From: Ruminococcus albus 7 = DSM 20455 | GTDB lineage: Bacteria > Bacillota > Clostridia > Oscillospirales > Ruminococcaceae | Assembly: GCF_000179635.2 (NCBI RefSeq) | Contig: NC_014825.1 | Coordinates: forward strand, 150,001 to 182,000 | DNA: 32,000 nucleotides | Direction: 5' to 3' | Part shown: in pieces, positions 7,814-30,692 of the stretch | Layout: each line of letters opens with the position of its first letter | How positions within the stretch are numbered: position 1 is the stretch's first letter | Notes under the pieces: generated by a model | Seen by the model: only the letters and a program-made list of their open reading frames with translations | Told to the model about the DNA's origin: nothing | Database searches by the model: none | Program-made: the position numbers and the translations under genes

Positions 7814-7817
7814 GCGC

Positions 7818-13274: not shown

Positions 13275-14914
13275 TGAAGAACTGAAAAAAGCATACGAAG
13301 AAATGTCAAAAAAGTGCGCTTTGCTTGAAAAAGAAAACGAGAAAAAAGATGAGACCATAGAGCATCTTGAAGAACTTCTTCTGAAAAGAAACAAGATGCT
13401 TTTCGGGCGTAAAAGCGAGAAGTCAAAATATTTGCAGTGTGACGGTCAGGAGAGCTTTGAAGGCGTGTTCAACGAAGCCGAAATGCTTTCCGATGAAGCT
13501 GCGGAAGAACCGACAGAGGAAACCATCGTTGTAAAAAGAAAGTCCCAAAAGACCGGTGAACACCGCGGCAAAAATAAGCTCAGAGAAGATCTTCCCAAAG
13601 AGAAGATCGTATCGAAGCTGCCCGAAAAACAAGTGTAACTGTGCTGTTTGCGGCAGTAAGCTCAAGGTCATCAAGGAAGAATTTCTGACAAGCAAACTTG
13701 TGTATATCCCCGAACAGCTGAAAATGCGTGAGTTTTACAGAACGGTGTACAAGTGTGAATGCTGCGATAAAAAGGGCGAGGATCCCCATATCGTCAAATC
13801 CGAAAACCCTACTCCCGCACAGGTCATACCGAAGGGTCTGCCGGATCAAACGCTTGTTGCGGATATAATGCAGAGAAAATATCAGCTTGGTACTCCGCTT
13901 GACCGTCAGGAAAAATACTGGGCGGCACAGGGGGTATATCTCAGCCGTACTTCAATGGCAAACTGGGTGATCGAGGGTTCAAAATGGTTTGAGCCTGTTA
14001 TTGATATGCTCTGGAAATATTCGTATAAAGAGCCTGTCCTGAATGCCGATGAAACGACGTCGAGAACTTTGAAAACCGATAAAGGCAAAAAAATAGACAA
14101 GCTGGGTCAGATGTGGATATGCTCGACAGGCAGAGCCGCAAAGAAAAAAATTGCAATATACGAGTACCGTGACAGTCGCACAAAGGCTGTTGCCGAGGAG
14201 CTTTACTATGGCTATACGGGCATATTGCAGACTGACGGATTTCAGTCCTATGGCAGCGGCAGCTACACGAGAGTCGGCTGCTGGTCGCATGCACGCAGGA
14301 AGCTGATCGACTGCATACCCGAAAAGCACAAAAAGAGCAAAGCGGCGATCGCTGTGGGTATGATCGACAAGATGTTCAAATACGAACGGGAGGCGAGAAA
14401 GGAAGACTATTCGGACGAACAGCTGCTTGAGATGCGTCGGGAAAAGATCGCCCCTCTTGTAGATGAGTTCTACAAATTCATAGACAGCCTTCACCCCGGC
14501 AATGGTTCACACTTAGCCGAGGCGGTTAATTATGCCCGAAATCAGAAAGCAGCACTGACTGTTTTCCTAAATAATCCACTTGTGGATATGAGCAACAATC
14601 TTGCAGAGAGAACAGTCAAGCCTTATATTATTGCAAGGAAGAATTTTCTTTTCAGCTGTACCGAGAAGGGTGCTCACGCAAGCGCGGCGGTTATGACAAT
14701 TATCGAGACAGCTAAGCGAAATGGTCTTGATGTGTACGGGTATCTCCTGCATCTGCTGACAGAGCTGCCGAAGTACGGTCATACTCCGACAAGGGAACAG
14801 CTTGAAGCTCTGATGCCGTGGAGCGACAGCCTGCCTGATTTCTGCAAGAAAAAGTATAGTCAGGTAGAGTCAGTTACAATACCGGAAATGAGTCTATGCA
14901 AAGCAAAGGTGTAG
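13275..14914 (+). pseudogene. tnpC: IS66 TnpC of element no. 1, split by IS66 no. 2 and additionally frameshifted
   Basis: The first 5 codons (GTG ACA TAT GAA GAA) are at 10255-10269. Removing 10271-13282 restores VTYEELKKAYEEMSKKCALLEKENE...LFGRKSEKS. A second lesion gives 'LPEKQV*' versus '..PKNKCNCAVCGSKL', with the frame change at the A5 run 13625-13629. Downstream motifs are intact (NADETTSRTL, LQTDGFQSY, CWSHARRK, MSNNLAERTVKPYIIARKNFLFS). Confidence 0.88.
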
Positions 14915-15506: not shown

Positions 15507-15704
15507 TCAGATTTCCGGATAGTCTATCTCATTCTCATCAAGAATAGCCTTGAGCCGGTCGATATACTCATACAGCCGCTGGATCTCTATCCAGTTGCCG
15601 TGACACAAGTGTTCGGCTTCCGCAAGCTCGTGACGGGTGAGCAGATAATCCTCCCATTTCAAGCACTTGTGATCCTTGCTGAAAGCACAGTAATTCTCCA
15701 TCAC
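15507..15704 (-). CDS. Small 65-aa ORF downstream of istB, inside the IS21 boundaries (unknown function)
   Basis: Its ATG overlaps the istB stop (ATGA at 15701-15704). It is followed by a terminator, and all of this lies inside the terminal repeat. The sequence is acidic with Cys/His residues (C6, H12, C14, H33, C34, H35). Confidence 0.5.
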
Positions 15705-16468
15705 GGTTCAGCTCCTTCCGGAAGCCCATGACGTTTTCTCATGGATATTTCACCATCGATCATTACCGGATATGCGGTATTGATTATCCTGTCGATTATC
15801 GCATCGGATATCGGACTGTCGTTTTCAGGATCGGGATTTATGCGTTCGTACCAGCCCTCGGCATGGTACTGTGTGCAAAAAATCATCGACTTTTCGATCC
15901 TTGCTTCGATGATCTCCAGCAGATTGTAGGCATCATTCGGAGCAAGCTTGCGGATAAGCCACTCGTCGAGGATCAGCAGATCGACTTTCTTGTATGCTTT
16001 GATTACCTTAGCAAATTCCCCGTTTGTTCTTGCAATGGAGAGTTCATCAAGCAGCTCCGGAAGTCTTATGTAGCGCACCGACTTGAACTTACGGCAGGCG
16101 GCATTTCCGAGAGCGCAGGCGACGTAAGTTTTTCCATTGCCCGATGCACCCATAAGGATAATATGCCTACCCTCGTCAACATAATTGCAGGTCGCAAATC
16201 GAAGCATTTTGCCTTTGTCGAGATGTCTGTCCTCAATGTATTCAATACCTTCAATGGTTGCATTAGCATCGGAGAAATGAGCGTTCCTGATGTATCTTAC
16301 GAGCTTGTTGTTCTGCCTGCGGTTCCATTCGGCATCAACAAGAAGTGTAAGTCTGTCCTCGAAACCAAGCTGTTTGTAGCTGTCGGCATCTTCAAGCTGA
16401 CGTTCAAGCTCGGCAGCCATTGAATTCATCTTCATAGCTCTTAAACACTCAATTGTGCTGTTGATCAT
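15701..16468 (-). CDS. istB: IS21 helper ATPase IstB
   Basis: Walker A 'GASGNGKTY', Walker B 'DLLILDEW', and the N-terminal '[16 protein letters not shown]' typical of IstB. It overlaps the istA stop by 4 nt. Confidence 0.93.
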
Positions 16469-17385
16469 TTGCTACCACCTACCTTTCTCCAGTAGGCGGC
16501 ACCGCGTGTGATGCCATATTTGTTGCTGTCATCGGTCTTTTCCGTGGGTTTGTCAGGCTCTTTGTTGTTTTTCAGCAGCGTTGTTATCGTGCGTATCGAA
16601 GGAGATGACGAGAACGCCAGCATACGCTCACAGGCGGCTTCAAGTTTCTTCTTTCCGTAACGCTTACCGAGCTTCGTTAGGCTTACACAGGCCTTGTACC
16701 CCTGTTCGGGAACGCTGCCGGAGGTCAGGAAATGCTTCACGACTTCCTCAACGGATTTGCCAACCGTTGACGCCCATTCCTTGAATTCATCGGCATTGTA
16801 GTTCAGATACTCGCGGTGATTCGTCGGCATATGCTCAGGTTTCACGACAGGCTGAACGCTGTACTTTTCAAGTCGCTTGTGTGAAGTCATGCGGCTACCT
16901 TTGAAATACACCTCAATCAGATCTTTGGTCAGGCGTATCTGCACCTGATCCCCGATAAGGTCAAAAGGAACAGAATATTTATTCAAGCCGTCCGAGATCA
17001 GATAGTCGTTCCCGACAGTCTGCTGTTTCCACACAGAGGGCTCATATCTGTGCTTAGGCAGCGGCAGCATGAATTCCTTTTCCTCAGATAGATATGCTTC
17101 TCTACGGTTTCCGGAACGTTTCTGAAATGGCTTTGTATTGACATATTCGAGGCGCTCGTCAACAGCCTCTCTGACCTCTGCAAAAGAGAAAAACTTACGC
17201 TCACGAAGTGCGGCGGTTATCCATGTTGTAGAGAATCCGACCGAGCGTTCAACGAACCCTTTATCCTGCGGCTTGCGAACTCTGGCAGGAACAATGGCTG
17301 TGCCGTAATATTCCGCAAGTTCACGGTAACTCTCGTTCAGCTGCGTTTCATAGCGAGTGTTCGCCGTCACACCGGTTTTGAGATT
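16465..17385 (-). pseudogene. istA: IS21 transposase IstA, C-terminal part (split by RIT insertion)
   Basis: It reads ...L-K-T-G-V-TANTRYETQLNESYRELAEYYGTAIVPARVRKPQDKGFVE..., continuing exactly from '...VLVPDNL' of the 20840-21469 part once 17386-20845 is removed. Confidence 0.9.
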
Positions 17386-17466
17386 TAATGTAAAGAGGAT
17401 GTTAATGTAAAGCTGAATAAAAATAGATCTAAAATCTAATGATTATAGGTATTCGACTTTACATTA
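17380..17466. repeat. RIT left-end recombinase-site cluster
   Basis: The 10-bp half-site TAATGTAAAG occurs at 17386-17395 and 17403-17412 (direct). The inverted copy CTTTACATTA is at 17457-17466. Confidence 0.85.
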
Positions 17467-17478
17467 ATATGATATAAT
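17450..17478 (+). promoter_or_regulatory. Possible promoter of the recombinase trio, overlapping an inner half-site
   Basis: Extended -10 TGaTATAAT (17470-17478) with a weak -35 around 17450-17457 (TTCGAC). Half-site 17457-17466 lies in the spacer. AAAGGAGG is at 17494-17501 and the ATG at 17511. Confidence 0.4.
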
Positions 17479-17510
17479 TGGATCAATCATAGAAAGGAGG
17501 AATTATCATC

Positions 17511-18743
17511 ATGATTGATTCCAGTTACTCAATGACACTGTATGATGCAATCCAACTGTTTCAAAGACACATCATACAAAACTACGGATCTGAATCCAAA
17601 ACAGCACAGGCTTACATTCGGATCTCTAATGATTTACAGCGGTATGCTAAAGGAACGGATTTGGAGGTTTCTCCGGAAGATGTGATCCAAGAATACTATC
17701 GTATTATCGTCGGGGTCCCTGCATTTGAAGCTGTTCCGTCAAAATCAAAAGAACGTCGAGGAAGAGCTGTTCAGATGATTCTGGATATCCTTAATGGAAA
17801 AGAACCTAAGAGAAAGTATACCACCCATAAGCGTGATTGTCCCATTACGTACCTGAATGTCATCAGAAAATATGAAACTTTCATGAGAAATGACCAAAAG
17901 AGCGATGGCACAGTACGCACGAGATCCGGACGAATCACTGTGTTTTTTGCTTTTCTTGAGGAGTGTAAATGTACATCATTAGAGGGCATCACGCCGGAGC
18001 TGTTTGCAAGATTTGTATCGTCCCTCAATGATAGGTATTCATCACAGGGAAAAGCGTCCATTTTGTATACGTTAAGGAATTTCTTTTCCTATGATGAGTT
18101 CTCAGGAGCGCTATCTTTCGATCCGATTCCCTTTTTGACAGGGATTCATTCCGGAAAGCATGAAAGACTCCCATCCTTTTACACGGCAGAAGAAGTAAGG
18201 CGTATCCTGAATGCTGTCGACAGGAATACCCCATGGGGAAAAACAGTCTATCTTATGATGCTTTTGGCAAGTGTGTACGGTTTTCGCTCAAGCGATATCA
18301 AAGCAATGGTTCTTGACAATATAAACTGGAAAAATCGCACAATAAATATCACGCAGTACAAGACGCACAAAGAGATTTCCCTTCCCATGACAGATGAGAT
18401 CCTTTTTGCACTCCTTGACTATATTAAGAATGTGCGTCCTGAGTCAGACTGTTCGAATGTGTTCATCCGACTTAGAAAACCGTACATTGCATACTCAATG
18501 AATGATCACTTTGGCGACAAGATATTACCGTTTTTTGAAATTGCCGGTGTTGATACAAAAGGTAAACATCATGGTCTGCATTCTTTAAGGCATAGTTTGG
18601 CAACAAACCTTTTGGTTTCAGGAACCCCGATAAATGAGATTGCTGTGATACTTGGACACACATCTGCGGCATCCACAAAAACTTATGTATGGTCAGATAT
18701 AGAGCATCTCCGAGCAGCAGCATTGGAGGTGCCTAAAAAATGA
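17511..18743 (+). CDS. Tyrosine recombinase, first of trio (410 aa)
   Basis: C-terminal catalytic motifs 'HGLHSLRHSLATNLL' and 'ILGHTSAASTKTYV' (R..HxxR..Y). It also has an N-terminal SAM-like/core-binding-type region. Confidence 0.9.
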   Translation: MIDSSYSMTLYDAIQLFQRHIIQNYGSESKTAQAYIRISNDLQRYAKGTDLEVSPEDVIQEYYRIIVGVPAFEAVPSKSKERRGRAVQMILDILNGKEPKRKYTTHKRDCPITYLNVIRKYETFMRNDQKSDGTVRTRSGRITVFFAFLEECKCTSLEGITPELFARFVSSLNDRYSSQGKASILYTLRNFFSYDEFSGALSFDPIPFLTGIHSGKHERLPSFYTAEEVRRILNAVDRNTPWGKTVYLMMLLASVYGFRSSDIKAMVLDNINWKNRTINITQYKTHKEISLPMTDEILFALLDYIKNVRPESDCSNVFIRLRKPYIAYSMNDHFGDKILPFFEIAGVDTKGKHHGLHSLRHSLATNLLVSGTPINEIAVILGHTSAASTKTYVWSDIEHLRAAALEVPKK

Positions 18744-19720
18744 TCAATGACAAGGAATTTCTTAAATTTGAAGAAGGTTTTTTCAAACCATATTTTGAAA
18801 AATTCATAGAGTTCAAGCGTGGAAAAGGTGAAAAAGTTGCTCATTCAACCATGGTTCGCTTAAGGAAACTGAACAATTCGCTTAATACTTACTATGAACA
18901 CCATATATCTGACCAGATGGTGGAGGAGTTACTGGCTCCTCGTGATGGATTAAGCGAATTAGAACGCCAATATCTTACAGCGAATCTCCGCCAGTTTTGT
19001 TCTTTCTTGGCGCTTCTCGGAATTGATGCGGTCATCGTCCCACGAAAATATATGCGAACGGTAAAGAGTGAATTTCGTCCGTACATTTTCAGCGACGATG
19101 AACTGCGCCGTCTGACTATTGCAGCCGACACGCTTCCTGCATCAAGAAAGTCGAGCTCGCATCAGCAGATATACCCAGTGCTCGTCAGATTACTTATAGG
19201 TACCGGAATGCGCATAGGCGAAGTCCTTGCACTGAAGCGGGCGAATGTTGACACTTCAAACGGTGTGATCAATGTTATCAACGGTAAAAATGGCGTTTCA
19301 AGATTTATTCCTGTATCCGACAGCTTGAAAGAAGTCCTATTTGACTATGCCAAGACTATAGATATGTCTGATGAGAATAGACCGTTTTTCACTTCCTCCT
19401 ACACCGGTGGTCATCTTACATATGATGCTATGAAATATATGTTTCCAAAGATGTTTAAGACGGCAGGCATACACAAGTCAGATGGTAAGACGCCAAATAT
19501 CCATTCTATCCGGCATACATTCTGCACCAAAAGTCTGGAAAAAATGTTGGAAAACGGAATGAATGTCTATACTGCTATTCCAATACTGGCGGCATACGTC
19601 GGACATGTGAATTACATAGATACAGAAAAATACATTCATTTCACAGAACAGGGACATACGGATTTCTTGCAGAAAGAATCATCCTTGGGGAGTCTATTCC
19701 CGGAGGTGGACAATGAGTGA
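18740..19720 (+). CDS. Tyrosine recombinase, second of trio (326 aa)
   Basis: 'GTGMRIGEVLALK', 'IHSIRHTFCTKSL' and 'YVGHVNYIDTEKYIH'. ATGA overlap with the upstream gene. Confidence 0.9.
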   Translation: MINDKEFLKFEEGFFKPYFEKFIEFKRGKGEKVAHSTMVRLRKLNNSLNTYYEHHISDQMVEELLAPRDGLSELERQYLTANLRQFCSFLALLGIDAVIVPRKYMRTVKSEFRPYIFSDDELRRLTIAADTLPASRKSSSHQQIYPVLVRLLIGTGMRIGEVLALKRANVDTSNGVINVINGKNGVSRFIPVSDSLKEVLFDYAKTIDMSDENRPFFTSSYTGGHLTYDAMKYMFPKMFKTAGIHKSDGKTPNIHSIRHTFCTKSLEKMLENGMNVYTAIPILAAYVGHVNYIDTEKYIHFTEQGHTDFLQKESSLGSLFPEVDNE

Positions 19721-20734
19721 TAATTTATTCTTCTATATACAACGATATTTTATGTCTTACCTAATGAAACAGCATAATTACGGCCCTAATACTGTTTCAT
19801 CATACCGAGACACCTTTAAGCTTTTGCTTAAATTTATGTCAGAATCCGGTAAAAGCATATCAAAGAAAACTGTTGATGAGATTGACTGCGATGTAGTACT
19901 CAAGTTTCTCTCTTGGCTTTCGAATGTCAGGAAAAATGGGGTGCCTACCCAAAATGTAAGATTGGCACATATAAAATCATTTTTTCGATATGTAATGATG
20001 ATCTCACCTGAATACTCCGGGCAATGCAGCGAAATACTCAGTATACCATTTGCAAAGGAAGATAAAAGGCTTCCTGATTGTATGTCTACGGATGCTATAA
20101 AGCAAATGCTTTCATCGATCGACTCATCATCTAACGAGGGACTAAGGCATTTGGCAATCTTATCCCTTATGTACGATTCAGCTTGTAGGGTTCAGGAAAT
20201 CATTTCACTAGATGTCAAAGACTTTCAGCCGGGTCAATGCTGCAGGATATATGTGCATGGTAAGGGAAATAAATATCGCACCATTCCGTTACTGGGAAAA
20301 ACAGAAAAAATCATCTCAAAATATATCAGGCAATTCGGTCTTATGCAAGAGTCCCCAATGTTTTGCAACAGGAATGGTGACCGGCTAACAAGGCAAGGCA
20401 GTCCGCGTACATAATAAGGAAATACTCTAAGTTGGCAAACGATACGGTTCCCGGTATTATAACCGGCTCTGTATACCCACATCGATTACGCCACAGTAAA
20501 GCCACACACCTTGTGGACAATGGCGTAAACATTTATAATGTCAGGGATTTCTTGGGACATGAGTCTGTTGCAACAACTCAGATTTACCTGTCAACGAATC
20601 CGGAAGTTATCAGAAAGGCTATCGAGACAGTAGCTGAGAAAACAGTATCAGAAAGCCTTGATTTCTTTTCAGACAAAGAAAAGGACGATTTTGATTTCCT
20701 TCTTGGATTCACTAGGATAACACGCATTTGTTAA
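19713..20734 (+). pseudogene. Tyrosine recombinase, third of trio, frameshifted
   Basis: ORF 19713-20414 ('...[15 protein letters not shown]') and ORF 20432-20734 ('[27 protein letters not shown]...[14 protein letters not shown]') join as ...[21 protein letters not shown]... The frame change must lie within 20381-20411. Confidence 0.8.
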
Positions 20735-20845
20735 TGTAAAGTAGGTCATGATGGAATGCCGATCAGACTTTCATTGAAACGGCCGACTTTACATTAACAT
20801 CCTCTTTACATTAAATCTCTAATGTGAAGCTTTACATTAGAGATT
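20732..20845. repeat. RIT right-end recombinase-site cluster, including two complete core-type sites
   Basis: Half-sites: TAATGTAAAG 20732-20741; CTTTACATTA 20787-20796 and 20804-20813; TAATGTGAAG 20820-20829; CTTTACATTA 20830-20839. The segment 20804-20829 reads CTTTACATTA-AATCTC-TAATGTGAAG (10-6-10). Confidence 0.85.
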
Positions 20846-21469
20846 ATCCGGAACCAAAACTCTTGTCACACCATCGAAGTATTCATAAGCGTGAATGTGG
20901 CACATGAGCCAGTTCTCCTGCTTCATGTCGGTGCAGGCTTCAACGTAAAGATAACTGCTGCAAGGCAATGCTGCTACGAAGATGTAAGCCTTGTACTCCT
21001 CACCTGTAACGCTGTCAAAGTACGGAATAGTGCCGCCTGCCCAATCTACCTGCATAACATCTCCAGGCTTATGCGTTACACGCATGGTAGCTTTAGTTAC
21101 ACGAGCCCAGCGACGGTATTTGTCACCGAACTGGGTGCTCATGTAGGGTGTTTCACCGTTTGCATAGGCATGCTCACAGTATTCATTCCAGAGTAGTGTG
21201 AGTGTCACACCTTTCTTGGACAGCTCACGGTGGATGTAGTCGTAATCTGGCTCTGCATAATGACTTCCGGCTGTTCTCCTTTCCGGATAGAAAAGCTTTT
21301 CAAGCTCAGCATTAGTCACATCCTCATCGATAGGCCATTCCACTCCATGCTTTGCAGCAAGTTCCAGAACATTCTTGACGGTATGATGAGAATGCCCCAC
21401 TCTTGCAGCGGTCTGTCTCAAGCTGTATCCCATACTGGTAAGCCTGAGTATTTCTTTGTAGTCCACCAT
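20840..21469 (-). pseudogene. istA: IS21 transposase IstA, N-terminal part (HTH and start of the DDE domain)
   Basis: 'MVDYKEILRLTSMGYSLRQTAARVGHSHHTVKNVL' is the HTH and 'MQVDWAG' a DDE-region motif. The frame ends '...VLVPDNL' and then runs into a TAA supplied by the RIT end. Confidence 0.9.
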
Positions 21470-21613: not shown

Positions 21614-21872
21614 TGAGTTTTAGCTCTGTGCGCAACTGTTTTAGCCGATCACCGACGGTCTGATTACTTGGATACATCTCTCCAGTGCCATCCATAAACC
21701 ATTCCTTGTTAACGCGAGTGCCTTTTAGAATTCTGCTAATACTATCTTCAGAAAAATTGGTTTCTCCATTTTCTAAGCGCGATTCAAGAGATGCAGACAT
21801 ATTGCAAAGCCTTGCAAAAACGGCAACAGTCATTTTATTGTGTTCTCTTAACTGTTTTAGCCTGTACTTCAT
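21614..21872 (-). pseudogene. XRE-type HTH regulator, 3' end truncated by IS21
   Basis: 'LKQLREHNKMTVAVFARLCNMSASLESRLENGETNFS' is HTH_3-like. A second repeat begins 'VGDRLKQLRTELKL' and is cut at the IS21 terminus. The last 19 codons of ORF 21555-21872 are IS-derived. Confidence 0.55.
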
Positions 21873-22483
21873 CGGTTCTTGTCAAGCCTCTCAATCTCAT
21901 CTATCAGCTCAAGTAGCTCATCCATACTTTCCCCATTATACCAAATCGCTTTCATCCCGACAGCTTCAGCACCTTTGACGTTCTTCTCGCTGTCATCGAT
22001 GAACACGCATTCTGACTTTTCTAGCCCATACCGCTCACACAGTATCTCATATATCCGCTTATCAGGCTTCACAACGTGCTCATAGCAGGAGAACACGCCG
22101 CCATCGAAGTGTGGGAGAAAGTTGAGTGGGAACACGTGCATCAGGTACTCGAAGTAGTTGGAGAGGAAGAAAATCTTATAACCTTTTGATCTCAGGGTTG
22201 TGATCAACGGCACAGTGGATGCTTTATCACGCGGACACTCACCGAGTTTGGAGAAGATGAGTCTGATCTCGGCTTCGTAGTTCGGAGCAGAGCTAATGAA
22301 CAACTTGAGAACTTCTTCATCAGTCATGCTCCCCTTATCAAACTCCACCCAGTCTGGATTGCGCCACATAGCTCTAGTCACGATATCGGCTGTTTCGGGA
22401 TCTAAGTATTTAGCTACGAAACTGTCCCAATCGAAATCCGTCAGAACGCCGCCGATGTCGAAGATTATAGAAGTTTTAGGCAT
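21869..22483 (-). CDS. HAD-superfamily hydrolase (subfamily IA-like phosphatase)
   Basis: Motif I 'IIFDIGGVLTDFD', then 'FFLSN', 'K', and motif IV 'CVFIDDSEKNVKGAEAVGM'. Confidence 0.8.
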   Translation of the reverse strand: MPKTSIIFDIGGVLTDFDWDSFVAKYLDPETADIVTRAMWRNPDWVEFDKGSMTDEEVLKLFISSAPNYEAEIRLIFSKLGECPRDKASTVPLITTLRSKGYKIFFLSNYFEYLMHVFPLNFLPHFDGGVFSCYEHVVKPDKRIYEILCERYGLEKSECVFIDDSEKNVKGAEAVGMKAIWYNGESMDELLELIDEIERLDKNR

Positions 22484-22658
22484 GGGTGGTGGCTCCTTTC
22501 TTGTATTCGGACTTCATATAAGAGTGATGTATAGCATAGCGAAGAGGTAGATGGCGAATAGGAGGTGGATGAAGTGCGGATTGATTATCTTTTTCATATG
22601 GCTTTAGTATAACCACAGAGAGTGTGTTTTTGTCAAGAGCTGTAGCCATCTGGAGCAG

Positions 22659-22937
22659 TCACTCTTTTGCCCAGGCATTATTGTCCAATATCTCTTCTAT
22701 TTTATCAAGATCTCTGCTTGCTATACGTGGATTCAATCCTTCTCTAACCTTATATTTCGCTAGATCATTCATATCGAATGAAGGGTTTTCTACGGTAAAT
22801 GCTTTGCATAAATCCCATAGCACATTTCCGTATCCAAGGTCTTTGGGATGGATGCAAACCTGCGTGTACTTTTCGCTATTACTCGGCAAGTGCATCCGTT
22901 TCATCAACTGACGAAATCGTTCCTTATAATCTTCCAT
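22659..22937 (-). CDS. Hypothetical protein (92 aa from the RBS-supported ATG)
   Basis: AAGGAGAAGG precedes the internal ATG at 22937 (MEDYKERF...). The longer ORF from 22982 lacks an RBS. No recognisable motif. Confidence 0.5.
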   Translation of the reverse strand: MEDYKERFRQLMKRMHLPSNSEKYTQVCIHPKDLGYGNVLWDLCKAFTVENPSFDMNDLAKYKVREGLNPRIASRDLDKIEEILDNNAWAKE

Positions 22938-23011
22938 TACCTTCTCCTTTAAATCAACAAATTCTATTAAAATGGTAACCACACTGGTTCGTACACTTGT
23001 TTCAGGGTAAC

Positions 23012-24304
23012 TTAATCCCTTCGGAACAGATCCCTTGTATAGACCTTATCAGCCACATCATCAAGACAAGAATCATATCTGTTTGCAATGATAGCAGCAG
23101 AACGCTTCTTGAACTCTTCGATGTCGTTAACCACAAGGCTGCCGAAGAACGTCTCACCATCCTGTAAAGAAGGCTCATAGATAATTACAGTTGCACCCTT
23201 AGCCTTGATACGTTTCATAACACCCTGAATAGAACTCTGACGGAAGTTATCGGAGTTTGACTTCATGGTAAGACGGTATACACCGATGACAACTTCCTTC
23301 TCTTTCGCTCTATCAAAATCATCAGAACCTTCATAGGCACCGACAATCTCAAGCACACGCTCAGCGATAAAGTCTTTTCTTGTCCTGTTGCTCTCAACGA
23401 TTGCTCCAATAAGATTCTGTGGAACATCAGCATAGTTAGCGAGAAGCTGTTTGGTGTCCTTCGGTAGACAATAACCGCCGTAGCCAAAGGAAGGATTATT
23501 GTAGTGTGTGCCAATACGAGGATCCAAGCACACACCATTGATAATTGCCTGTGTGTCTAAGCCTTTCATTTCAGCGTATGTATCCAGTTCGTTGAAGTAT
23601 GACACGCGGAGTGCAAGATAAGTATTCGCAAACAGCTTGACTGCCTCTGCCTCTGTTGTTTCCATGTATAAAGTAGGGATGTTCTCTGCAATTGCTCCTT
23701 GTTGGAGAAGATCTGCGAAGGTGTGAGCTGCATTGCAACAGATCTCATCGTCCTGTGGAAAACCCACGATAATGCGGCTCGGATAGAGATTATCGTAAAG
23801 AGCCTTTGACTCACGGAGGAATTCAGGTGCGAAGATAATGTTCTTACCAACTTCTCCGTAGAGGCTAATATAGTGCTCTGTGATCCTCTTTGTATAGCCG
23901 ACAGGAATTGTGGATTTGATGATAATCACAGGGTGTTCCTCACGACTTTTGCCCTTGTTTGATTCAAAAACAAGATCCATGGCTGCTTCAACATAAGATG
24001 TATCGAAGAAATTTTTCTTGCTGTCGTAATTTGTAGGGGTTGCTATGATGATGAGTTCGGCAGAACTGTAGGCTGATGCTCCGTCAAGTGTAGCGGTCAA
24101 ATCAAGGTTGCTGTCCTTGCCACCTGCTGTTTTTCCTTCTGTGAGGTATCTCTCGATCTCATCGTCCTGAATCGGGGATATATGATTGTTGATCTTTTCT
24201 ACCTTTTCAGGGACAACATCAACTGCTGTCACATGGTTATGCTGTGCGAGAAGCACAGCAAGGGAAAGACCGACATAACCAGTTCCTGCAACTGCTATAT
24301 TCAT
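23012..24304 (-). CDS. ugd: UDP-glucose 6-dehydrogenase (HasB/Cps3D-like)
   Basis: '[20 protein letters not shown]' is the NAD-binding fold. Other motifs are '[24 protein letters not shown]', '[28 protein letters not shown]', '[22 protein letters not shown]' (catalytic Cys) and '[15 protein letters not shown]'. Confidence 0.92.
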
Positions 24305-24336
24305 ATATGTATTACTCCTTTACTGTTATGTGGTTC

Positions 24337-24846
24337 TCAATTAGTAGCAGAATATTTAATAGGACAAACTTCCACACACTTGTAGCACCGAATACAGAGA
24401 CTTGCATCCAATACCGGATAAAGAAAGCCTTCCTCGTCTTCTTCCATAAAAATTGCACCATGTGGCAGGTCATATTTCTCACCGAAACTTCCAACAGAAT
24501 CTTTGCCGCTATTAAGCAACAATCCTTTTACGGTGCAAACAGCATAACAGGCGGTACATCCACAGCAATTCTCTCGAATGTTATATAGTTCCGGAAGTTG
24601 CTTATCAGTTTCAATCAAGCTCTTTGTTTTAGGGCTATAAGCTAATGGAATACCGTTTGTTCCTATTTTTATATTTTTATAACGTGTTGAAATATGTGGC
24701 TGATAACAAGTCTGGTCTTGAGGCTTCGGTTGTTGTTCATCCGGTAAAAAAGAGCCATCTGCATACTGATAAACCTTGGTACCGGCAGGCACATCATCGT
24801 ACTCATGAGATGAGTTAACACGAGTTATTCTTTTCATTTCTATCAT
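24337..24846 (-). CDS. 2x[4Fe-4S] ferredoxin-domain protein with a ~85-aa N-terminal extension
   Basis: 'CCGCTACYAVC' (CxxCxxCxxxC) and 'CIRCYKCVEVCP' flank 'EEDEEGFLYP'. This is the arrangement normally found at the N-terminus of FrhB-like proteins in EPS loci. The better-spaced start is ATG 24837. Confidence 0.75.
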   Translation of the reverse strand: MIEMKRITRVNSSHEYDDVPAGTKVYQYADGSFLPDEQQPKPQDQTCYQPHISTRYKNIKIGTNGIPLAYSPKTKSLIETDKQLPELYNIRENCCGCTACYAVCTVKGLLLNSGKDSVGSFGEKYDLPHGAIFMEEDEEGFLYPVLDASLCIRCYKCVEVCPIKYSATN

Positions 24847-25814
24847 CTCCTAAGTAATTTATGTGCTAAACGTATTGCGAATTGTTTACTCTTATTGATA
24901 AAGCCAAAATTAGTGTATTTCTTTGCGAGATAATCAAAATTTTGCATATAAAAGTCTTTCCAAAACTGATACCGATTATCTGGAAACGGAAAAGGTGCTT
25001 TCAAAGGCGGTTGTAAACTCTTTTCAATATCACATTCCTTATAATCTAAACTATCATTAACAGCATTGAACATATTATTTCCTAATTCATCATTAACAAG
25101 AACTAATGAAACACCTTTGTTATCATCAAAGCCCGGTGCGGCATTTTGAATTCCCCAATAATCTGCAATAGTTATATTTCCAGGATGCATTATAGATTTA
25201 TAAGGACATCTGTGACAACAAGGCCTGAGTATATCATGGCCATAAAACAATTCCTTAAAAACATCACTATCCACTCTTGAATTGTTCTTCATATATAATG
25301 ATTCAACATGAGCTGCCCAGCCAAACTCTCTTTTATTTCTAAAATCAACATTATCTATCTGACTATTGGCTCTTTCCTCTTGCCATTTTATATAATTGAC
25401 CCAGATAAGTGGACTTGGAACTCCGTGACATACAATGTCAACACAAATCAGATTGGAATACTCTTGTCCCAAAAACAATTGCAATCCAGCTACTTGGCAA
25501 GAAGTGCCTGAAAACAACACTTGCTTATTGGCTTTCAGATCGTCTTCCACCAATTCAAATACATTTCCTAATGAACTTTGAATATACTTAGAGCCGCGCA
25601 TCCTGTCTCGTTCTTCTTTTGAAGTGGCACGAATATGCTTTGCCAACAAGTCATCAGTCAAAATGCATCCATATACGACACCATTTCTATCCAACACATA
25701 ATCTGACAAAGCCGTAAAGATTCCTCCTGAACGTGATGCCATTCGGATCCGCTCATCTTTATGCTTTACAGCAAATACAAGTGGAACATTATATTTATCC
25801 AAGACGTTATTCAC
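24843..25814 (-). CDS. Coenzyme F420 hydrogenase/dehydrogenase beta-subunit-like (FrhB/FdhB-family) protein lacking its usual Fe-S N-terminus
   Basis: 'RMASRSGGIFTALSDYVLDRNGVVYGC', 'FSGTSCQVAGLQLFL' and 'VDIVCHGVPSP'. The family is commonly paired with polysaccharide pyruvyl transferases. Confidence 0.7.
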   Translation of the reverse strand: MNNVLDKYNVPLVFAVKHKDERIRMASRSGGIFTALSDYVLDRNGVVYGCILTDDLLAKHIRATSKEERDRMRGSKYIQSSLGNVFELVEDDLKANKQVLFSGTSCQVAGLQLFLGQEYSNLICVDIVCHGVPSPLIWVNYIKWQEERANSQIDNVDFRNKREFGWAAHVESLYMKNNSRVDSDVFKELFYGHDILRPCCHRCPYKSIMHPGNITIADYWGIQNAAPGFDDNKGVSLVLVNDELGNNMFNAVNDSLDYKECDIEKSLQPPLKAPFPFPDNRYQFWKDFYMQNFDYLAKKYTNFGFINKSKQFAIRLAHKLLRR

Positions 25815-27313
25815 ACCTCTTTTCTCTTTGAGCGTTTCAATGATTTTATCATTTCAAAACAAGTTGGGTTGATTATTAGATTCATGAGCGTTCCTATTGC
25901 CCCTATCACAAGAGTCAAAACAATGCCAGCAAGCAAAAATGTAGGAATATTTGCAATCTCAAAGTCTATAACCTTATCTAGGATAACAACTATGATAAAT
26001 AATAGTATGTTAGATCCAATGATAGTAATAGACTTTCTATAAGATCTATGCATAACCTTCTTGTCACTGATATAAGTTGTATAGATGATTTTAAGAGGAA
26101 GCGCAATAACAGTTGCAAACAGAACACCCACAATTCCAAATTTAAGAACAAGAATGATAGACAGCGTAATGTTAGTTATTGCTTCAATAAGTGAAATACG
26201 ACTCGTTGGTTTTGCATAGCCGGCTACACCTGTCAAGTTTCCTTGAATGTATCGACTCCATGAAAGAATCTGAACTAAACAAAACATGATAGGTAATTCC
26301 GAGTAAAGATAATTGACATCGGCAATACTACGCGTATACATAGTAATGAAAGGAATTGTTAGGACATACGCAACAGACATTAGTATGGTCATAGAACCGA
26401 TAAATACAGACATAAACGCATCATGAACCTTTTCATATACAGATAGTCCTTCATGATACTTCACTCCTAAAGTGTAATTGATGCTGGAATATATAGCATT
26501 TAATAGCGTGTTTATACTCACAAAGACCATATTATAAACTGAATATACACTTGACAAAGTGGTGCTGACAAATACAGAAAGAACAATTAAGTCTGTTGAT
26601 GAGAATATTGTCCATGCAATTTCTGTAATGATATAGGAATTCCTGTCATTCAGTTTTGCAGTTTTGGGTGCAGCCTTCTCATTGATCCAAGCGTAATTCT
26701 TCCTGAAATAATAGCGATAGAAAGCCACTTTTCCAATCGTTAAAAGTAAATAGCAAGCCTGTAAAATAACAATGCTAATGCCATTTAAAGCTAGTATAAT
26801 TCTGATTATATAGGACAAAACCTTATAAACCAGATCAGTAATACCATTAATGTATTCCTTTCCATCCGTATTAAGCGTAACTTTAACCGTTTGAACATAA
26901 TAAAATGAAAGAACAGAAGAAGCGCCTTCCAACAGAATGACAAGGAATATTGTCTTATAATCAACTTCTGTCTTTAATACAATCGGTGCTACAACAGCCA
27001 ATGTACAAACTGCCAAGCCATAGATTAATGTCAGTTTTCTATAATAATTCATAGCTGCTGAAACAATAAACGATACACCATCATGGTCATTATCATGAAT
27101 AGGCTTATATAATGCATTTCTCGCAGCTTGTCCAATTCCAGCTTCGAGTAGTGCCATATAGGTGAATATTTGCGTTAAAGTGGTGAGCAAGCCGTTTATG
27201 TCAGAGCCATAACTCGATATAAAGATTCTTGGTACGATTAATCCAAGAATCATGGTAATGAACTGCCCTACAAAACCTATAGTTGCATTCTTTAATAAAT
27301 TTTTCTTATTCAT
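25811..27313 (-). CDS. Polysaccharide flippase (Wzx-like, MOP superfamily)
   Basis: A 500-aa polytopic membrane protein (many hydrophobic segments) inside a glycan locus. The N-terminal 'LLKNATIGFVGQFITMILGLIVPRIFI' is typical of the family. Confidence 0.65.
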   Translation of the reverse strand: MNKKNLLKNATIGFVGQFITMILGLIVPRIFISSYGSDINGLLTTLTQIFTYMALLEAGIGQAARNALYKPIHDNDHDGVSFIVSAAMNYYRKLTLIYGLAVCTLAVVAPIVLKTEVDYKTIFLVILLEGASSVLSFYYVQTVKVTLNTDGKEYINGITDLVYKVLSYIIRIILALNGISIVILQACYLLLTIGKVAFYRYYFRKNYAWINEKAAPKTAKLNDRNSYIITEIAWTIFSSTDLIVLSVFVSTTLSSVYSVYNMVFVSINTLLNAIYSSINYTLGVKYHEGLSVYEKVHDAFMSVFIGSMTILMSVAYVLTIPFITMYTRSIADVNYLYSELPIMFCLVQILSWSRYIQGNLTGVAGYAKPTSRISLIEAITNITLSIILVLKFGIVGVLFATVIALPLKIIYTTYISDKKVMHRSYRKSITIIGSNILLFIIVVILDKVIDFEIANIPTFLLAGIVLTLVIGAIGTLMNLIINPTCFEMIKSLKRSKRKEV

Positions 27314-27326
27314 CTTAGTTCAGTCA

Positions 27327-28570
27327 TCAATTGCTTTTCAACTCTTGTAGAAGTAACTCTTTAGATGTCTCTACATAATTAATAAGCCTTTCGTAATTAA
27401 CCTTATTGGGGTCGATATAAATCATTCCGTTTTCGCTATAATTGTAATTAATTTCGTTTAATAAATCACATATTCTGTCTTTTAAATCATTAGTTCCGTT
27501 AAAAATCACCGGCTTTTTATAGATTAAGCCAAAGGCAAAGGCATGAAATGAATTTGTAACAATGACTTTAGTTTCATAAATTAAGCTGAGAAATTCGCTC
27601 GGTCCAACATCATTTCTTATATCAATCAAATTACTAGTTGACCTATTTTGGCAGGTTGGATGAATACCAATAATTCTGAGATTCTTTTCGGAAGCAATTT
27701 TGATTGCTTGTTCATCCAACTCTTTATCAGAGCGCAATAAATAATATAATATAAAACATGGTTATCCCTTTAACACACCATTAAAAAGTGCTATATAACA
27801 ATGAATCATCGTGTTGATGTTATCCTTCCCCCGCCGCAGGCGGGGGAAGGATAACCGCCGAGTATTTCTAGTTCTTATATTACACCAAATTAATTGGTGT
27901 GTAAACGGGATAATCAGAATATAAAATTATCCTCTTTTACATTCTCGTTCTGAAAATTTAACCATTCATCTAATGATAGCAAAAAAACAGGATCGATTAC
28001 TAAATCCGAGTTTATATGTGATAGATTTAAAATATTTACGCCAAATCTCTCACGAACACTTACCCACGAAAACAAGGGGAGATATTTTTTTATATTCTCA
28101 GATATTTCATTAGATATTCTTTTATTGCCAAAACTAGCAGCATATGAAATACTCATTTTTTCTGAATCTACAAAAGAAAGAAAATATGGAGAAGAATCGT
28201 TAAGGAAGGCATCATTCCAAACCTGATCGCTACCTGTAATAAAGCAGTCAAAATCACTGTTTAATAATCCCAGCTTATCCTTGGTGACATTATCCGTAAT
28301 AGTAAGATTGTTAATTACAAAATTATCAAACAGGGCATACTGTCTCTTTCGCTTAAAAAACAGCTTGGCTTTCCCCAGTATTTCTCCTTTACTTCGAGAA
28401 TCAAATGGATTCAAGGAATACTCGTGATGCAACTCAGGAGGATAATAATTAATGATTTTTACATTATATGAATTGTTTGTTAAAAAATTAGACAGCGCTA
28501 ACGCTTGTAATACAGCACCATAATTGTATGCAAAATGAAAAGTTATGATGCCAATCCTATTTATCAACAT
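27327..28570 (-). pseudogene. Polysaccharide pyruvyl transferase, interrupted by a 161-bp MITE
   Basis: The N-terminal part 27914-28570 ('IGIITFHFAYNYGAVLQALAL') and the C-terminal part 27327-27737 are in frame once 27757-27926 is deleted (...EDNFILYYLLRSDKE...). Confidence 0.85.
27757..27917. mobile_element. MITE-like non-autonomous element (161 bp) with imperfect ~25-bp TIRs and an internal perfect hairpin
   Basis: 9-bp TSD AATATAAAA at 27748-27756 and 27918-27926. TIRs are GGTTATCCCTTTAACACACCATTAA (27760-27784) and the reverse complement of 27890-27915, GATTATCCCGTTTACACACCAATTAA. The internal stem is 17 bp with a 3-nt loop (27819-27855). Confidence 0.85.
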
Positions 28571-29735
28571 ATGTTACTCCTCCATTATTTACTGAAAGTA
28601 TCTCTCTATAGTAATCATAAATTGATGAAGCTGATTTCTCAATACTATACAAACTAATGGCAATTTCTATCGGATTTTTCATAAAATTCAAAACATCCAT
28701 GTCGTTCATTTTTGATATTTCAGTCATATACTCTGCCATTTGAGAAATACTATCATATAGAAAGCCGCCTTTTGTTTTTTCTAAAATCTCCTTTGTTCCA
28801 GCGGTATTTCTCCCAATAACTGGGCAGCCTAACATATTCGCCTCTGCAGTCATCATTCCAAAACCCTCATTATACGACCCAACTATCAAGGCTTTGGCGG
28901 ATAACATAAATGGTTTGATATCCTTTTGAAAACCTATAAACTGAACCCTGCTTATAATTCCATAGTCTTCACACTTTTGTTTAATCATATCAATATATCC
29001 ATCGTCACCAAATCCCGCAATCTTAAGAATAAATTCACTGTTATTTTTACAAAATATAGCGAACGCATCTATAACGTCAGTTATGCCTTTTTCAGGCGAT
29101 ATTCTATTAGCAACTAGGAAATACTTCATCTTTTCTTTTGTTTCAATTTTACATTCATTCTTAAAGAATAGTGCATCATATATAACCTTTGATTTAATAT
29201 TGTTTTCTAAGCCGAAATATTTTTGCATATCATATGTTATTATAACCGTATATGATTCTCGAAACATCTCTTTAACTTTTTTTTCGGAAGGATACAACCT
29301 CCTGTGAAAATCCAATGTTTGATATTCTCTTATATGCCATAGATGCGGAATACCAAGTCTTTTAGCTAACAAGTAGCCCTCCTGAATCACACCAGTATTA
29401 GTATGAATCAAATCCGGTTTTTGCGTTTTAATCACTCTTTTTATGTCTTTTTCACTTTTTATTCTTCTATAAGATAGTACAGTTTTTCTATATAATTCTC
29501 GTAATACAGAACCTTTTTTTTCAGTTAAACACAACGGATTCATATTACAACGTTGATATTTTACACCTAACTGATTCAATCTTTCAATAATTTCTACATT
29601 TCCAGAATTTTGATTATCATAAGGGATTATTACAAAGGGCTCAATATCTTTTTTTTTCAGTTCAGATAACAAGTTTAAAAAAGTTATTGTCGCTCCTCCC
29701 ATCACTGTTGAATGCAATAAGAAAAGGATTTTCAT
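28557..29735 (-). CDS. Glycosyltransferase family 4 (GT-B, retaining)
   Basis: 'MKILFLLHSTVMGGATITFLNL' at the N-terminus and a C-terminal E-x7-E region 'EGFGMMTAEANMLGCPVIGRNTAGTKEIL'. Confidence 0.85.
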   Translation of the reverse strand: MKILFLLHSTVMGGATITFLNLLSELKKKDIEPFVIIPYDNQNSGNVEIIERLNQLGVKYQRCNMNPLCLTEKKGSVLRELYRKTVLSYRRIKSEKDIKRVIKTQKPDLIHTNTGVIQEGYLLAKRLGIPHLWHIREYQTLDFHRRLYPSEKKVKEMFRESYTVIITYDMQKYFGLENNIKSKVIYDALFFKNECKIETKEKMKYFLVANRISPEKGITDVIDAFAIFCKNNSEFILKIAGFGDDGYIDMIKQKCEDYGIISRVQFIGFQKDIKPFMLSAKALIVGSYNEGFGMMTAEANMLGCPVIGRNTAGTKEILEKTKGGFLYDSISQMAEYMTEISKMNDMDVLNFMKNPIEIAISLYSIEKSASSIYDYYREILSVNNGGVTYVDK

Positions 29736-29791
29736 ATCTTCACCACCATATTTTTTTCTTCGGCAATAAAATACCGAAATAAGCGTCCGTT

Positions 29792-30682
29792 TTACGCTTC
29801 GATATACCTTCCATTCAGTACATCCATAAGGTATCTTCCATACTGGTTCTTCATAAGTTCCTTTGCATCTGCCATCAGTTCTTTTTTAGAGATCCATCCA
29901 TTGAGGTATGCAATTTCTTCAAGGCAAGCGATCTTTCTGTGCTGATGATCTTCAATTGTCTTTACGAAATTCGTAGCCTCAACGAGAGACTCATGTGTAC
30001 CTGTATCAAGCCATGTAAAGCCCTGTCCGAGAAGTTCAACATTGAGTTTACCGCTTTCAAGATAAATACGGTTGAGGTCGGTAATTTCCAGCTCACCTCT
30101 TGCAGAAGGCTTGAGGGACTTAGCATACTCTACTACCTTTTCGTCATAGAAGTAAAGACCTGTTACGCAGTAGTTTGACTTTGGATGCTCAGGCTTTTCC
30201 TCTATTGAAACAGCCTTGCCGTTTCCGTCAAATTCAACGATACCGAAACGTTCTGGATCGTCAACATAATACCCGAATACTGTTGCACCATTGCCATTTT
30301 CAGCGTTCTCAACTGCCTTTTTCAGACGCTTCACAAGTCCGTGACCTGAGAAAATATTATCACCGAGAACCATAGCACATGGCTCGCCCTTTGTGAATTC
30401 TTCACCGATCAGAAATGCCTGTGCAAGTCCGTCAGGTGATGGCTGCACCTTGTACTGTAAGTTTATTCCAAACTGATGTCCATCACCGAGAAGGTCCTCA
30501 AATCTGGGAGTATCCTGCGGTGTGGAAATTATGAGTATATCACGTATCCCTGCTTGCATAAGCACTGACAGCGGATAGTATATCATCGGCTTGTCATAAA
30601 TGGGGAGAAGCTGCTTTGATGTTACCTTTGTTAGCGGATAGAGTCGTGTACCACTTCCACCTGCAAGAACGATTCCTTTCAT
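29792..30682 (-). CDS. rfbA: Glucose-1-phosphate thymidylyltransferase
   Basis: '[18 protein letters not shown]', '[17 protein letters not shown]', 'LGDNIF' and '[10 protein letters not shown]'. Confidence 0.95.
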
Positions 30683-30692
30683 TTTGACCTCC

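Follow-up and report, generated by a model that had tools for sequence, protein, structure and literature searches.

A RIT element in the istA gene of an IS21 element of Ruminococcus albus 7 has ends consistent with two mirror-image recombination cores that share a palindrome

RIT (recombinase in trio) elements have been known since 2009 and occur widely among the bacterial phyla. The subject of this study is a RIT element that interrupts the istA gene of an IS21 insertion sequence (IS) of Ruminococcus albus 7. It is located in a stretch of 32,000 nucleotides (NC_014825.1, positions 150,001–182,000), which is hereafter called the window and whose first letter is position 1 of all coordinates given below. 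Among the described systems, the element is similar to the ritABC elements known from Cupriavidus metallidurans CH34 and C. necator pHG1 (Van Houdt 2009/2012; Ricker 2013) in its three same-strand genes for about 410, 326, and 334 amino acid residues with ATGA and 8-bp overlaps. It also resembles them in its size of about 3.5 kb, its terminal inverted repeats, its palindrome at one end and its location inside a gene of another mobile element (PMC3414803; PMC2864759). The palindrome at one end of RIT elements was noted earlier and left unexplained (PMC3414803; PMC5737581). Moreover, no transposition of RIT elements was reproduced, the repeats at their ends were not considered convincing binding sites and the mechanism was regarded as 'yet to be deduced' (PMC3414803; PMC5737581; PMC10214605). 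The results presented here suggest a double-core model, in which short half-sites at the element ends are the recombinase arms and either of two cores crosses over within a 6-bp overlap. We consider this model probable, with some reserve.

The body of the element (E) spans positions 17386–20813 (3428 bp) and possesses perfect 27-bp inverted ends. On its left side, E abuts the hexamer GAGATT (L6, 17380–17385), which reads AAT CTC or Asn-Leu on the minus strand, followed by the C-terminal portion of the interrupted istA (16465–17379, minus strand; Pfam Mu-transpos_C_2), whose translation runs K-T-G-V-T away from the insertion. On its right side, E is followed by the inner 6-mer AATCTC (I6, 20814–20819), which is the reverse complement of the target 6-mer, a 20-bp palindrome (P, 20820–20839), a second GAGATT at the junction of P with the target (R6, 20840–20845) and the N-terminal part of istA (20846–21469, minus strand; Pfam rve), whose translation ends with R-V-L-V-P-D. 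With X for the K-T-G-V side and Y for the V-P-D side of istA, the layout is X-L6-E-I6-P-R6-Y. The istB gene of the host IS21 is located at 15701–16468 on the minus strand (Pfam IstB_IS21, E = 7.5e-48). Read across the insertion, istA gives R-V-L-V-P-D-N-L / N-L-K-T-G-V, with the hexamer GAGATT on both sides. Rejoining of 16465–17379, one GAGATT and 20846–21469 yields an open reading frame (ORF) of 514 amino acid residues, which is collinear with intact IstA without a gap at the site, and the identities between this ORF and intact 514-residue IstA homologs are up to 89%. The closest intact istA reads GTACCGGAT AATCTC AAGACAGGT, in which the hexamer is found once only. Given that the intact relative has one AATCTC, the inserted DNA is 3460 bp long and consists of E, I6, P, and one extra target 6-mer. 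By this comparison, the element is inserted at the codons for Asn-Leu within the catalytic motif D-N-L-K of IS21 istA, and GAGATT at 17380–17385 and 20840–20845 is the target's own Asn-Leu codon pair. An earlier note on this DNA had counted GAGATT as element sequence, which was not borne out, as the intact istA relative carries a single AATCTC there. The 'extra 26 bp' that it had assigned to the element (20820–20845) are accordingly 20 bp of element and 6 bp of target. The empty site was taken from the intact IstA homolog instead of the fetched loci, as a search of all fetched loci for empty sites returned false positives only, which came from copies with two P.

A scan of the window for the 10-bp half-site TAATGTAAAG or its complement identified exact matches at 17386, 17403, 17457(-), 20732, 20787(-), 20804(-), and 20830(-), and the site at 20820 is a one-mismatch version, TAATGTGAAG. 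All eight half-sites listed in the earlier note were therefore found, seven of them exact. With one mismatch allowed, the window contains 11 matches, compared with 3.6 ± 1.8 expected (0 of 100 shuffles reached 11), and 8 of the 11 are in the element ends. Such clustering greatly exceeds what chance would give, and the observation is real. The left terminal inverted repeat of E (17386–17412, plus strand) consists of TAATGTAAAG, the 7-nt AGGATGT and another TAATGTAAAG, and the right one (20787–20813, plus strand) of CTTTACATTA ACATCCT CTTTACATTA. In addition, each end has an inner half-site in inverted orientation. The left one (17457–17466, minus strand) is an exact match 72 nt from the end, and the right one (20732–20741, plus strand) is 73 nt from the end. 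These six end sites and the two arms of P make up the eight half-sites. P reads TAATGTGAAG CTTTACATTA, and its only internal mismatch is G at 20826. A repeat finder reported a 36-nt terminal inverted repeat (17377–17412 and 20787–20822, 97%) as well as a palindrome of 16 + 16 nt without gap at 20814–20845.

The segment 20804–20829 (plus strand) reads CTTTACATTA-AATCTC-TAATGTGAAG, which confirms the inverted 10-bp arms and the 6-bp spacer proposed before, and it is referred to as core C1, of which I6 is the spacer. Similar to the cores of loxP, FRT, and dif, in which inverted arms surround an asymmetric overlap of 6–8 bp that sets the direction of the reaction, C1 has by its letters a complete 10-6-10 organization. 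Different from these sites, the RIT element would have two cores placed back to back through a common palindrome and two further half-sites per end, and the arms of its target are unrelated in sequence. The half-sites are most likely the recombinase arms. When 20839 is joined to GAGATT and then to 17386, the predicted junction reads CTTTACATTA-GAGATT-TAATGTAAAG. The claim that the joined ends form a near-perfect palindrome with a second core thus holds for the sequence, but the whole predicted junction is 86 nt long instead of about 58 bp. P itself could conceivably be read as a core of the form 7-6-7, with AAGCTT as its palindromic spacer, but this reading is not needed. The reading of the palindrome as a pair of arms common to two cores originates from the present comparison, and an earlier description (e.g., Ricker et al., 2013) is possible.

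Comparison of closely related copies argues that the three 6-mers are exchangeable crossover spacers. The host of the element of loci L001–L009 is a different IS21. Its flanks bear only a distant similarity, and the homologous codons are interrupted. The window element and the L001 element differ at 39 of 3454 positions (98.9% identical). In the order L6/I6/R6, the 6-mers are GAGATT/AATCTC/GAGATT in the window and AAGGTT/AACCTT/AAGGTT in L001. These differences are synonymous in istA (AAT CTC versus AAC CTT, both Asn-Leu), and P, including its internal mismatch, is unchanged between the two copies. By this comparison, all three 6-mers are derived from the target and were swapped since the two copies diverged. 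Because the inner spacer changes together with the target 6-mer between copies of such high identity, C1 is regarded as a live crossover site, with crossovers in or at the 6-mer.

The origin of the individual 6-mers is indicated by a copy in Butyrivibrio hungatei (L012), in which L6 is GCAGTT (N-C) and R6 is CATGTT (N-M). Among 110 intact relatives of its IstA in which the motif was found (identities of 96–54%), 91 have DNCK, 19 have DNTK and none has DNMK. Thus, the 6-mer far from P is the native one and the 6-mer on the P side was brought in. A carry-over of 6 bp, by which one 6-mer comes from the previous site, is supported in this one case. Such a carry-over is documented for strand-biased circularizing integrative elements (SE elements) and Tn554 (PMC10214605). 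The Tn554 family, the SE elements and the GInts are also similar to the RIT element in having several tyrosine recombinases and site-specific targets, and in them 6 bp of the donor flank are carried to one new junction, so that a genuine duplication at the flanks is not required (PMC10214605). Different from the RIT element, these elements end asymmetrically, use a single junction core and encode an additional protein that is not a recombinase (TnpC/Srap/Tfp), and they are without terminal inverted repeats, the P palindrome or reported insertion in two orientations. Because of its inverted ends, its P and its lack of an accessory non-recombinase gene, the window RIT is, as judged from its sequence, outside the Tn554 and SE families despite the similar carry-over. 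We rejected a target-site duplication by fill-in, as made by DDE transposases, because many copies have unlike L6 and R6 and because one of the 6-mers that flank L012 is foreign.

The same end plan was identified in related elements. A scan of species-representative genomes (one each) with a RitA alignment identified 41 loci, and a scan of JGI metagenome contigs for TAATGTNAAGCTTNACATTA identified at least 120 loci from gut, rumen, soil, freshwater, and marine sources as well as two viral contigs. The constancy of P among the loci found with TAATGTNAAGCTTNACATTA is partly forced by that search pattern. At least 14 public contigs carry a 99%-identical relative of RitA. Half-sites are found at positions 1 and 18 of both ends in 36 distinct complete elements. 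For the left end, the arm at position 1 is kept in 33 and that at position 18 in 31 of the 36 elements. The inverted inner half-site is present in nearly all of them, at 72–74, 84, or 95 nt depending on the clade. These spacings change by steps of about one helical turn, which suggests that the DNA from the inner to the terminal sites forms a phased loop. The outermost arm varies among the clades (TAATGGAAAG, TAATGACAAG, TTATGTAAAG, and ATATGCGAAG), and the position-18 and inner arms remain close to TAATGTAAAG.

A half-site-like 10-mer and a 6-mer before P and a 6-mer after P were found in 101 distinct contexts; the counts of contexts given here and below are those among the matches listed. 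In 61 of the 101, I6 is the exact reverse complement of R6, for which the chance is 1 in 4096. It differs from it by 1–2 nt in 30 contexts and by 3–4 nt in the other 10. The half-sites of P are often unlike the adjacent arm of E. The trio of pHG1 also has the plan of 6-mer, P, 6-mer, E, and 6-mer, written in other words: TAGCGC-AAATGTGCTG CAGCACATTT-GCGCTA-TTACCGGCCG..E..CGGCCGGTAA-TAGCGC. Compared with pHG1, the window element represents a lineage of Bacillota from rumen and gut, with other half-site words, 35% RitA identity and a defined target in IS21 istA. The palindromes of 47 and 51 bp reported by Nielsen et al. agree with this plan (PMC5737581). The alignment of relatives thus extended the architecture proposed in the earlier note to the eight-half-site plan of 36 distinct elements, and all relatives, whether close or distant, as well as pHG1 contain the extra segment at the right end, corrected to I6 and P. 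The refuting condition named in that note, related copies that lack the extra segment or the half-site pattern, therefore did not hold. It could be argued that the extra 26 bp are an old RIT end or a chance duplication without function, as they contain the same words as the true end. Given that the arrangement occurs in every close relative, in the 101 contexts from diverse environments and in pHG1, and that the 6-mers track the target, a functionless relic is hardly credible, and this explanation was dismissed.

In the double-core model, the RIT would integrate into the Asn-Leu codons of istA by site-specific recombination of the tyrosine-recombinase type, and the mobile unit would comprise E, a 6-mer, P, and another 6-mer. 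Excision would connect the ends of E through 6-mer, P, and 6-mer, which would create two mirror-image 10-6-10 cores with P common to both. C1 would consist of the right arm of E, I6 and the left arm of P, and C2 of the right arm of P, the junction spacer S6 and the left arm of E. Either C1 or C2 would cross over with the target within the 6-bp overlap. Because either core can do so, P would end on the same side of the asymmetric target and the gene body could face either way. After integration, C1 (20804–20829) would persist in a recombination-competent form and could invert E in place or rearrange with other targets. C1 and the hybrid junction at 20830–20855 would be the integrated remains of the palindromic double core. 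The 6-mers would be the overlap regions, of which the one far from P comes from the target and the one on the P side from the previous site. Upon excision, L6 would become the junction spacer and I6 would be kept. Integration through the junction core would then give the order target, old I6 and old L6, and integration through the inner core would give target, old L6 and old I6 with the body reversed. Several hops among identical IS copies would make all three 6-mers alike, as they are in the window. A circular intermediate, an assignment of the proteins to the half-sites and an order of strand exchange are presumed in this scheme.

As far as the sequences go, the scheme yields every class of 6-mers seen. 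In the 59 rows with both ends, all three 6-mers are alike in about 24. Agreement is limited to I6 and R6 in about 10, in which L6 usually differs by 1–2 nt, to L6 and R6 in about 6, and to L6 and I6 in 3, and the others are mixed. L6 differs from R6 in about 20 of the 59 rows, and their last two nt are always common to both. A more elaborate version of the scheme is tentative and, in our view, rather doubtful. In this version, the excised form would be an 86-bp palindrome with six half-sites that is bound by an A2B2C2 assembly of the recombinases, strand exchange would be biased to one strand and take place between either of the two mirror-image cores and catalytic-motif codons (D-N-x-K or E-K-G of IS21, Walker A/B of IstB, HUH of IS91, and P-loops), the 6-mers would keep a 6-bp memory of the last two sites, and the element would be a homing parasite of mobile elements and ATPase genes. 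If true, the A2B2C2 assembly would be the reason for having three recombinases.

The orientations of E and P bear directly on the use of two cores. All of the 26 distinct contexts from the IS21 D-N-x-K clade have P next to the Asp-codon side of the target. Among all clades, ritC adjoins P in 46 distinct contexts and ritA in 33, and R. albus AR67 has one copy in each orientation (L014 and L015). The flanks and 6-mers of L172 are the same as those of L001, but in L172 it is the ritA end that adjoins P. Moreover, P reads TAATGTAAAG CTTCACATTA in L172 and TAATGTGAAG CTTTACATTA in L001. This rearrangement is not an assembly chimera, as all of it lies within 60 bp, and L172 would be the exact product expected from a circle opened at the inner core C1. 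In an alternative explanation, integration uses a single junction core and C1 only flips E in place, for example as an orientation switch for read-through or expression. The left junction (the X arm, GAGATT, and TAATGTAAAG) and C1 are indeed copies in inverted orientation whose spacers match, as is the case for invertible segments; both orientations of E are similarly frequent; and L167 and L181, which have the same E end and P in both polarities, fit inversion of E only. However, inversion of E only leaves P unchanged and therefore does not explain L172 and L001, in which E and P are both reversed at the same site. In addition, the inner 6-mers of L020, L018, and L148 match neither flank and resemble other IS21 Asn-x codons. 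An element that uses C1 solely for inversion is therefore quite improbable in our estimation. To judge from L167 and L181, E is probably also flipped in place against the left junction. Of the choice between two oppositely oriented crossover sites that the earlier note had envisaged, the comparative side (exchange of spacers, both orientations, and L172) agrees with the idea, but no circle junction was found in public contigs.

Several observations weigh against the double-core model. The arms of the target are without similarity to the half-sites, which leaves the mode of target recognition unexplained. A search of the JGI metagenome contigs for the joined ends (right arm of E, 6-mer, P, 6-mer, and left arm of E) gave 0 matches, although transient circles are unlikely to assemble, and a mobilome study obtained no circular junction reads for RITs (PMC5737581). 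The direction of carry-over has one direct test (L012) and one indirect test (L070/L018). Because 3.4 kb separate L6 from the right side, short-read assemblies may merge different copies, which weakens the counts of the 6-mer classes. The polarity of P relative to the E end is not fixed, as in L167 and L181, and thus more than one process must act. Finally, the copy in the window is probably non-autonomous, because its ritC is frameshifted. The evidence that is free of chimeras consists of the local relation of I6, P, and R6 and the comparisons with L012 and L172.

The missing circle junctions are among the points that fit another explanation, in which C1 and C2 are the two strands of a single core borne on a hairpin of single-stranded DNA, one strand is exchanged and replication resolves the product. 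The intermediate would be either a circle of single-stranded DNA or one strand in exchange, and the double core of the duplex would be no more than the mark left by the hairpin. As single-stranded DNA, the strand of the predicted junction could form a hairpin with a 39-bp stem (-38.9 kcal/mol, z = -18.7), which indicates capacity only. The exact complementarity of I6 and R6 in 61 of the 101 contexts is what a paired stem needs, and the layout X-6-E-6-P-6-Y results directly when the linearized strand is placed between the target 6-mer and X. The match of the carried 6-mer with the target may be as short as the last 2–3 nt (CATGTT versus GCAGTT in L012), and such a short match fits a first-strand exchange without full branch migration, in which heterology of the spacer is tolerated. 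Furthermore, a strand bias is known for SE elements, which are related, and DNA of RITs was protected from exonuclease and gave no circle-junction reads (PMC10214605; PMC5737581). There are precedents in CTXphi attP(+) and the integron attC, the substrates of XerCD and IntI, in which two nearby inverted cores of single-stranded DNA can form one duplex site by pairing. In these systems, heterology of the spacer is tolerated and replication resolves the product. Different from the RIT element, which encodes three recombinases, they depend on one host or integron recombinase and their single-stranded intermediates are demonstrated. On the other hand, I6 is unlike the reverse complement of R6 in about 40% of the contexts, by up to 4 of 6 nt, so that a perfect stem is unneeded, and a duplex circle in which heteroduplex segregates would give the same patterns of 6-mers. 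Sequence alone does not separate the folded strand from the duplex double core, and we regard the folded strand as unlikely but worth keeping in mind.

The palindromic nature of P also invites comparison with telomere resolvases. In such an explanation, P would be the center of a palindrome at which one recombinase forms or resolves hairpins with covalently closed ends, and the inverted 6-mers would arise from off-center opening of a hairpin on the target side. I6, P, and R6 form a perfect 32-bp palindrome in most contexts, one contig (L118) is a near-perfect palindrome centered on P, and hairpin-protected RIT intermediates were already suggested (PMC5737581). However, the mismatch G at 20826 is common to the window and the L001 lineage, which are independent insertions with different 6-mers. 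P is thus inherited and not made anew at each event. Together with the P half-sites that are often unlike the adjacent E arm and the many 6-mers that are non-complementary, this makes a hairpin of the telomere-resolvase kind very improbable. We likewise rejected that each insertion rebuilds P from a single half-site, given the inheritance of an imperfect P across independent insertions and the frequent difference between P and the adjacent E arm.

With regard to its genes, the element contains three adjacent tyrosine recombinase genes on the plus strand, the long A gene first. ritA (17511–18743; Pfam Phage_integrase, E = 4.6e-25) encodes 410 amino acid residues, and ritB (18740–19720; Pfam Phage_integrase), which overlaps ritA by ATGA at 18740–18743, encodes 326. 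The frameshifted ritC (19713–20720; Pfam Phage_integrase) overlaps ritB by ATGAGTGA at 19713–19720. In RIT elements, short gene overlaps of the ATGA type measure 4–8 bp (PMC3414803; PMC2864759) and the unit of about 3.5 kb has inverted repeats and a palindrome at one end (PMC3414803; PMC10214605). RitA contains an HSLRH..GH..Y motif and, read from its sequence, an N-terminal extension of 120 residues followed by a SAM-like domain at 121–194. This extension could accommodate the second of the two core-binding domains that are expected of a RitA. The catalytic box HxLRH..GH..Y is kept in RitA, RitB, and the intact RitC of L001. ritA is 35.5% identical to the first gene of the pHG1 trio (tblastn, E = 8e-46), an annotated trio, and has matches at 11 places in that plasmid. 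Considering the order, sizes, and overlaps of the genes, the homology with pHG1, the three catalytic boxes and the inverted ends with a palindrome, the element is by these features an ordinary member of the RIT family. A megablast search of PLSDB plasmids with the element returned no match. In the window, ritC is split into two ORFs (19713–20414 and 20432–20734; 233 and 100 amino acid residues), and intact relatives encode 334 residues. Relative to the intact 334-residue gene of L001, it has three 1-nt insertions, at 20401, 20407, and 20689, two of which are outside homopolymer runs. Its native stop codon is TAA at 20718–20720. The overlap of the half-site at 20732 with the stop codon of the third recombinase, which the earlier note had pointed out, is therefore an artefact of the frameshifted ritC.

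The inner left half-site had also been placed in the spacer of a promoter of the trio. A putative promoter element resembling an extended -10, TGaTATAAT (17470–17478, plus strand; read by eye), is located upstream of ritA and starts four nt past this half-site. In relatives, a hexamer similar to -10 recurs 5–12 nt past the inner half-site. However, a scan with the sigma-70 consensus found no promoter at 17450–17480 or elsewhere at the left end, so that of the proposed arrangement only the nearby -10-like element was recovered. Occlusion of the putative promoter by bound recombinase is plausible, but the claim of a promoter with autoregulation is weak.

The target of the window clade is D-N-x-K of IstA. 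Other clades that share P (loci L064, L096, L133, L145, L157, L105, L086, L087, L139, L183, L116, L109, L124, and L085) interrupt, according to the reconstructed targets, codons of E-K-G-x-V/I-E of IstA and of the Mu-type G-K-I-E-R, the region of the first Asp (D-F-G) in an IstA-like transposase with an rve domain, Walker A and Walker B of IstB, H-I-H of the IS91 Y2 transposase (Y2_Tnp) and the P-loops of ResIII helicase and other ATPases. Single RIT insertions were reported in radC, in tnpA of IS66 and in a Tn6049-like transposase gene (PMC2864759; PMC3414803). These two papers state no general rule of catalytic-motif targets, and an earlier statement, e.g., in Ricker et al. (2013), is possible. 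Similar to homing elements, such as inteins and group I/II introns with homing endonucleases, the RIT elements insert into highly conserved stretches that code for catalytic motifs. Different from them, the chemistry is entirely different, RITs are without splicing and the host gene is inactivated.

Many contigs with relatives of RitA in the Logan collection (L060, L062, and others; 3420–3435 bp) extend exactly from TT and the left repeat to the right repeat and AA, with the assembly breaks within the 6-mers. A number of copies deviate from the plan. Copies with two P and two Asp-side flanks were found in L019, L058, L077, L079, and L138, and copies without P and with two Lys-side flanks in L021 and L017. 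Recombination of one copy with another or with a second target may have produced them, but they may also be chimeras of assembly across the 3.4-kb repeat, and they were left out of the evidence for the latter reason. A solo P, i.e., P and two 6-mers with head-to-head target arms and no recombinase genes, was observed at L066:785, L093:193, L163:319, L137:7146, L074:222, and L118:2001. In L118, a contig of 4020 bp, the palindrome centered on P has 12 mismatching positions. In L010 (1200–1260), the N-terminal part of istA and its 6-mer (..GGATAACCTT) are fused to ATTCGA-CTTTACATTA, which is the region of the inner left half-site (17451 in the window). P and the left end are missing from this scaffold, two unrelated 6-mers are in tandem, and the fusion is explained neither by crossover in a common spacer nor by a common k-mer. 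In L053–L056, the right end of E abuts DNA that is not IS21 (CTTTACATTA AAAATA AAAAGGGTTG...) and there is no P. This end is upstream of KAP-NTPase and QatB-like genes, and at the left end 46 bp of istA remain beside an IS1182-like transposase gene.

In the window, the RIT-containing IS21 is part of a cluster of insertion sequences beside a polysaccharide-synthesis block (21869–31843, minus strand). Just upstream of it are two IS66-family transposase ORFs of 503 and 452 amino acid residues (11170–12681 and 13556–14914). Farther upstream, the regions 46–6981 and 7373–8798 contain an ORF of 2311 residues, after which come a DUF4869 protein and an NTPase of the AAA/STAND-like kind.

As far as the literature shows, the proposed site architecture and its dynamics would represent a new variant in the organization of the att sites of tyrosine recombinases, of which an earlier description is possible. 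The half-site observation now provides a testable map, with three crossover 6-mers, eight half-sites at fixed spacing, a portable palindrome, a defined target and a rule for the origin of the 6-mers, and the long-open mechanism of RIT elements becomes directly testable. The double-core scheme would explain both orientations of the body, the carry-over of 6 bp would link the RITs mechanistically to Tn554 and the SE elements, and a stoichiometric reason for the three recombinases is suggested. Given that RIT clades reside in catalytic-motif codons of transposases and ATPases, they would be natural inactivators of IS elements. They are also possible sources of programmable-looking tyrosine recombinases with short sites.

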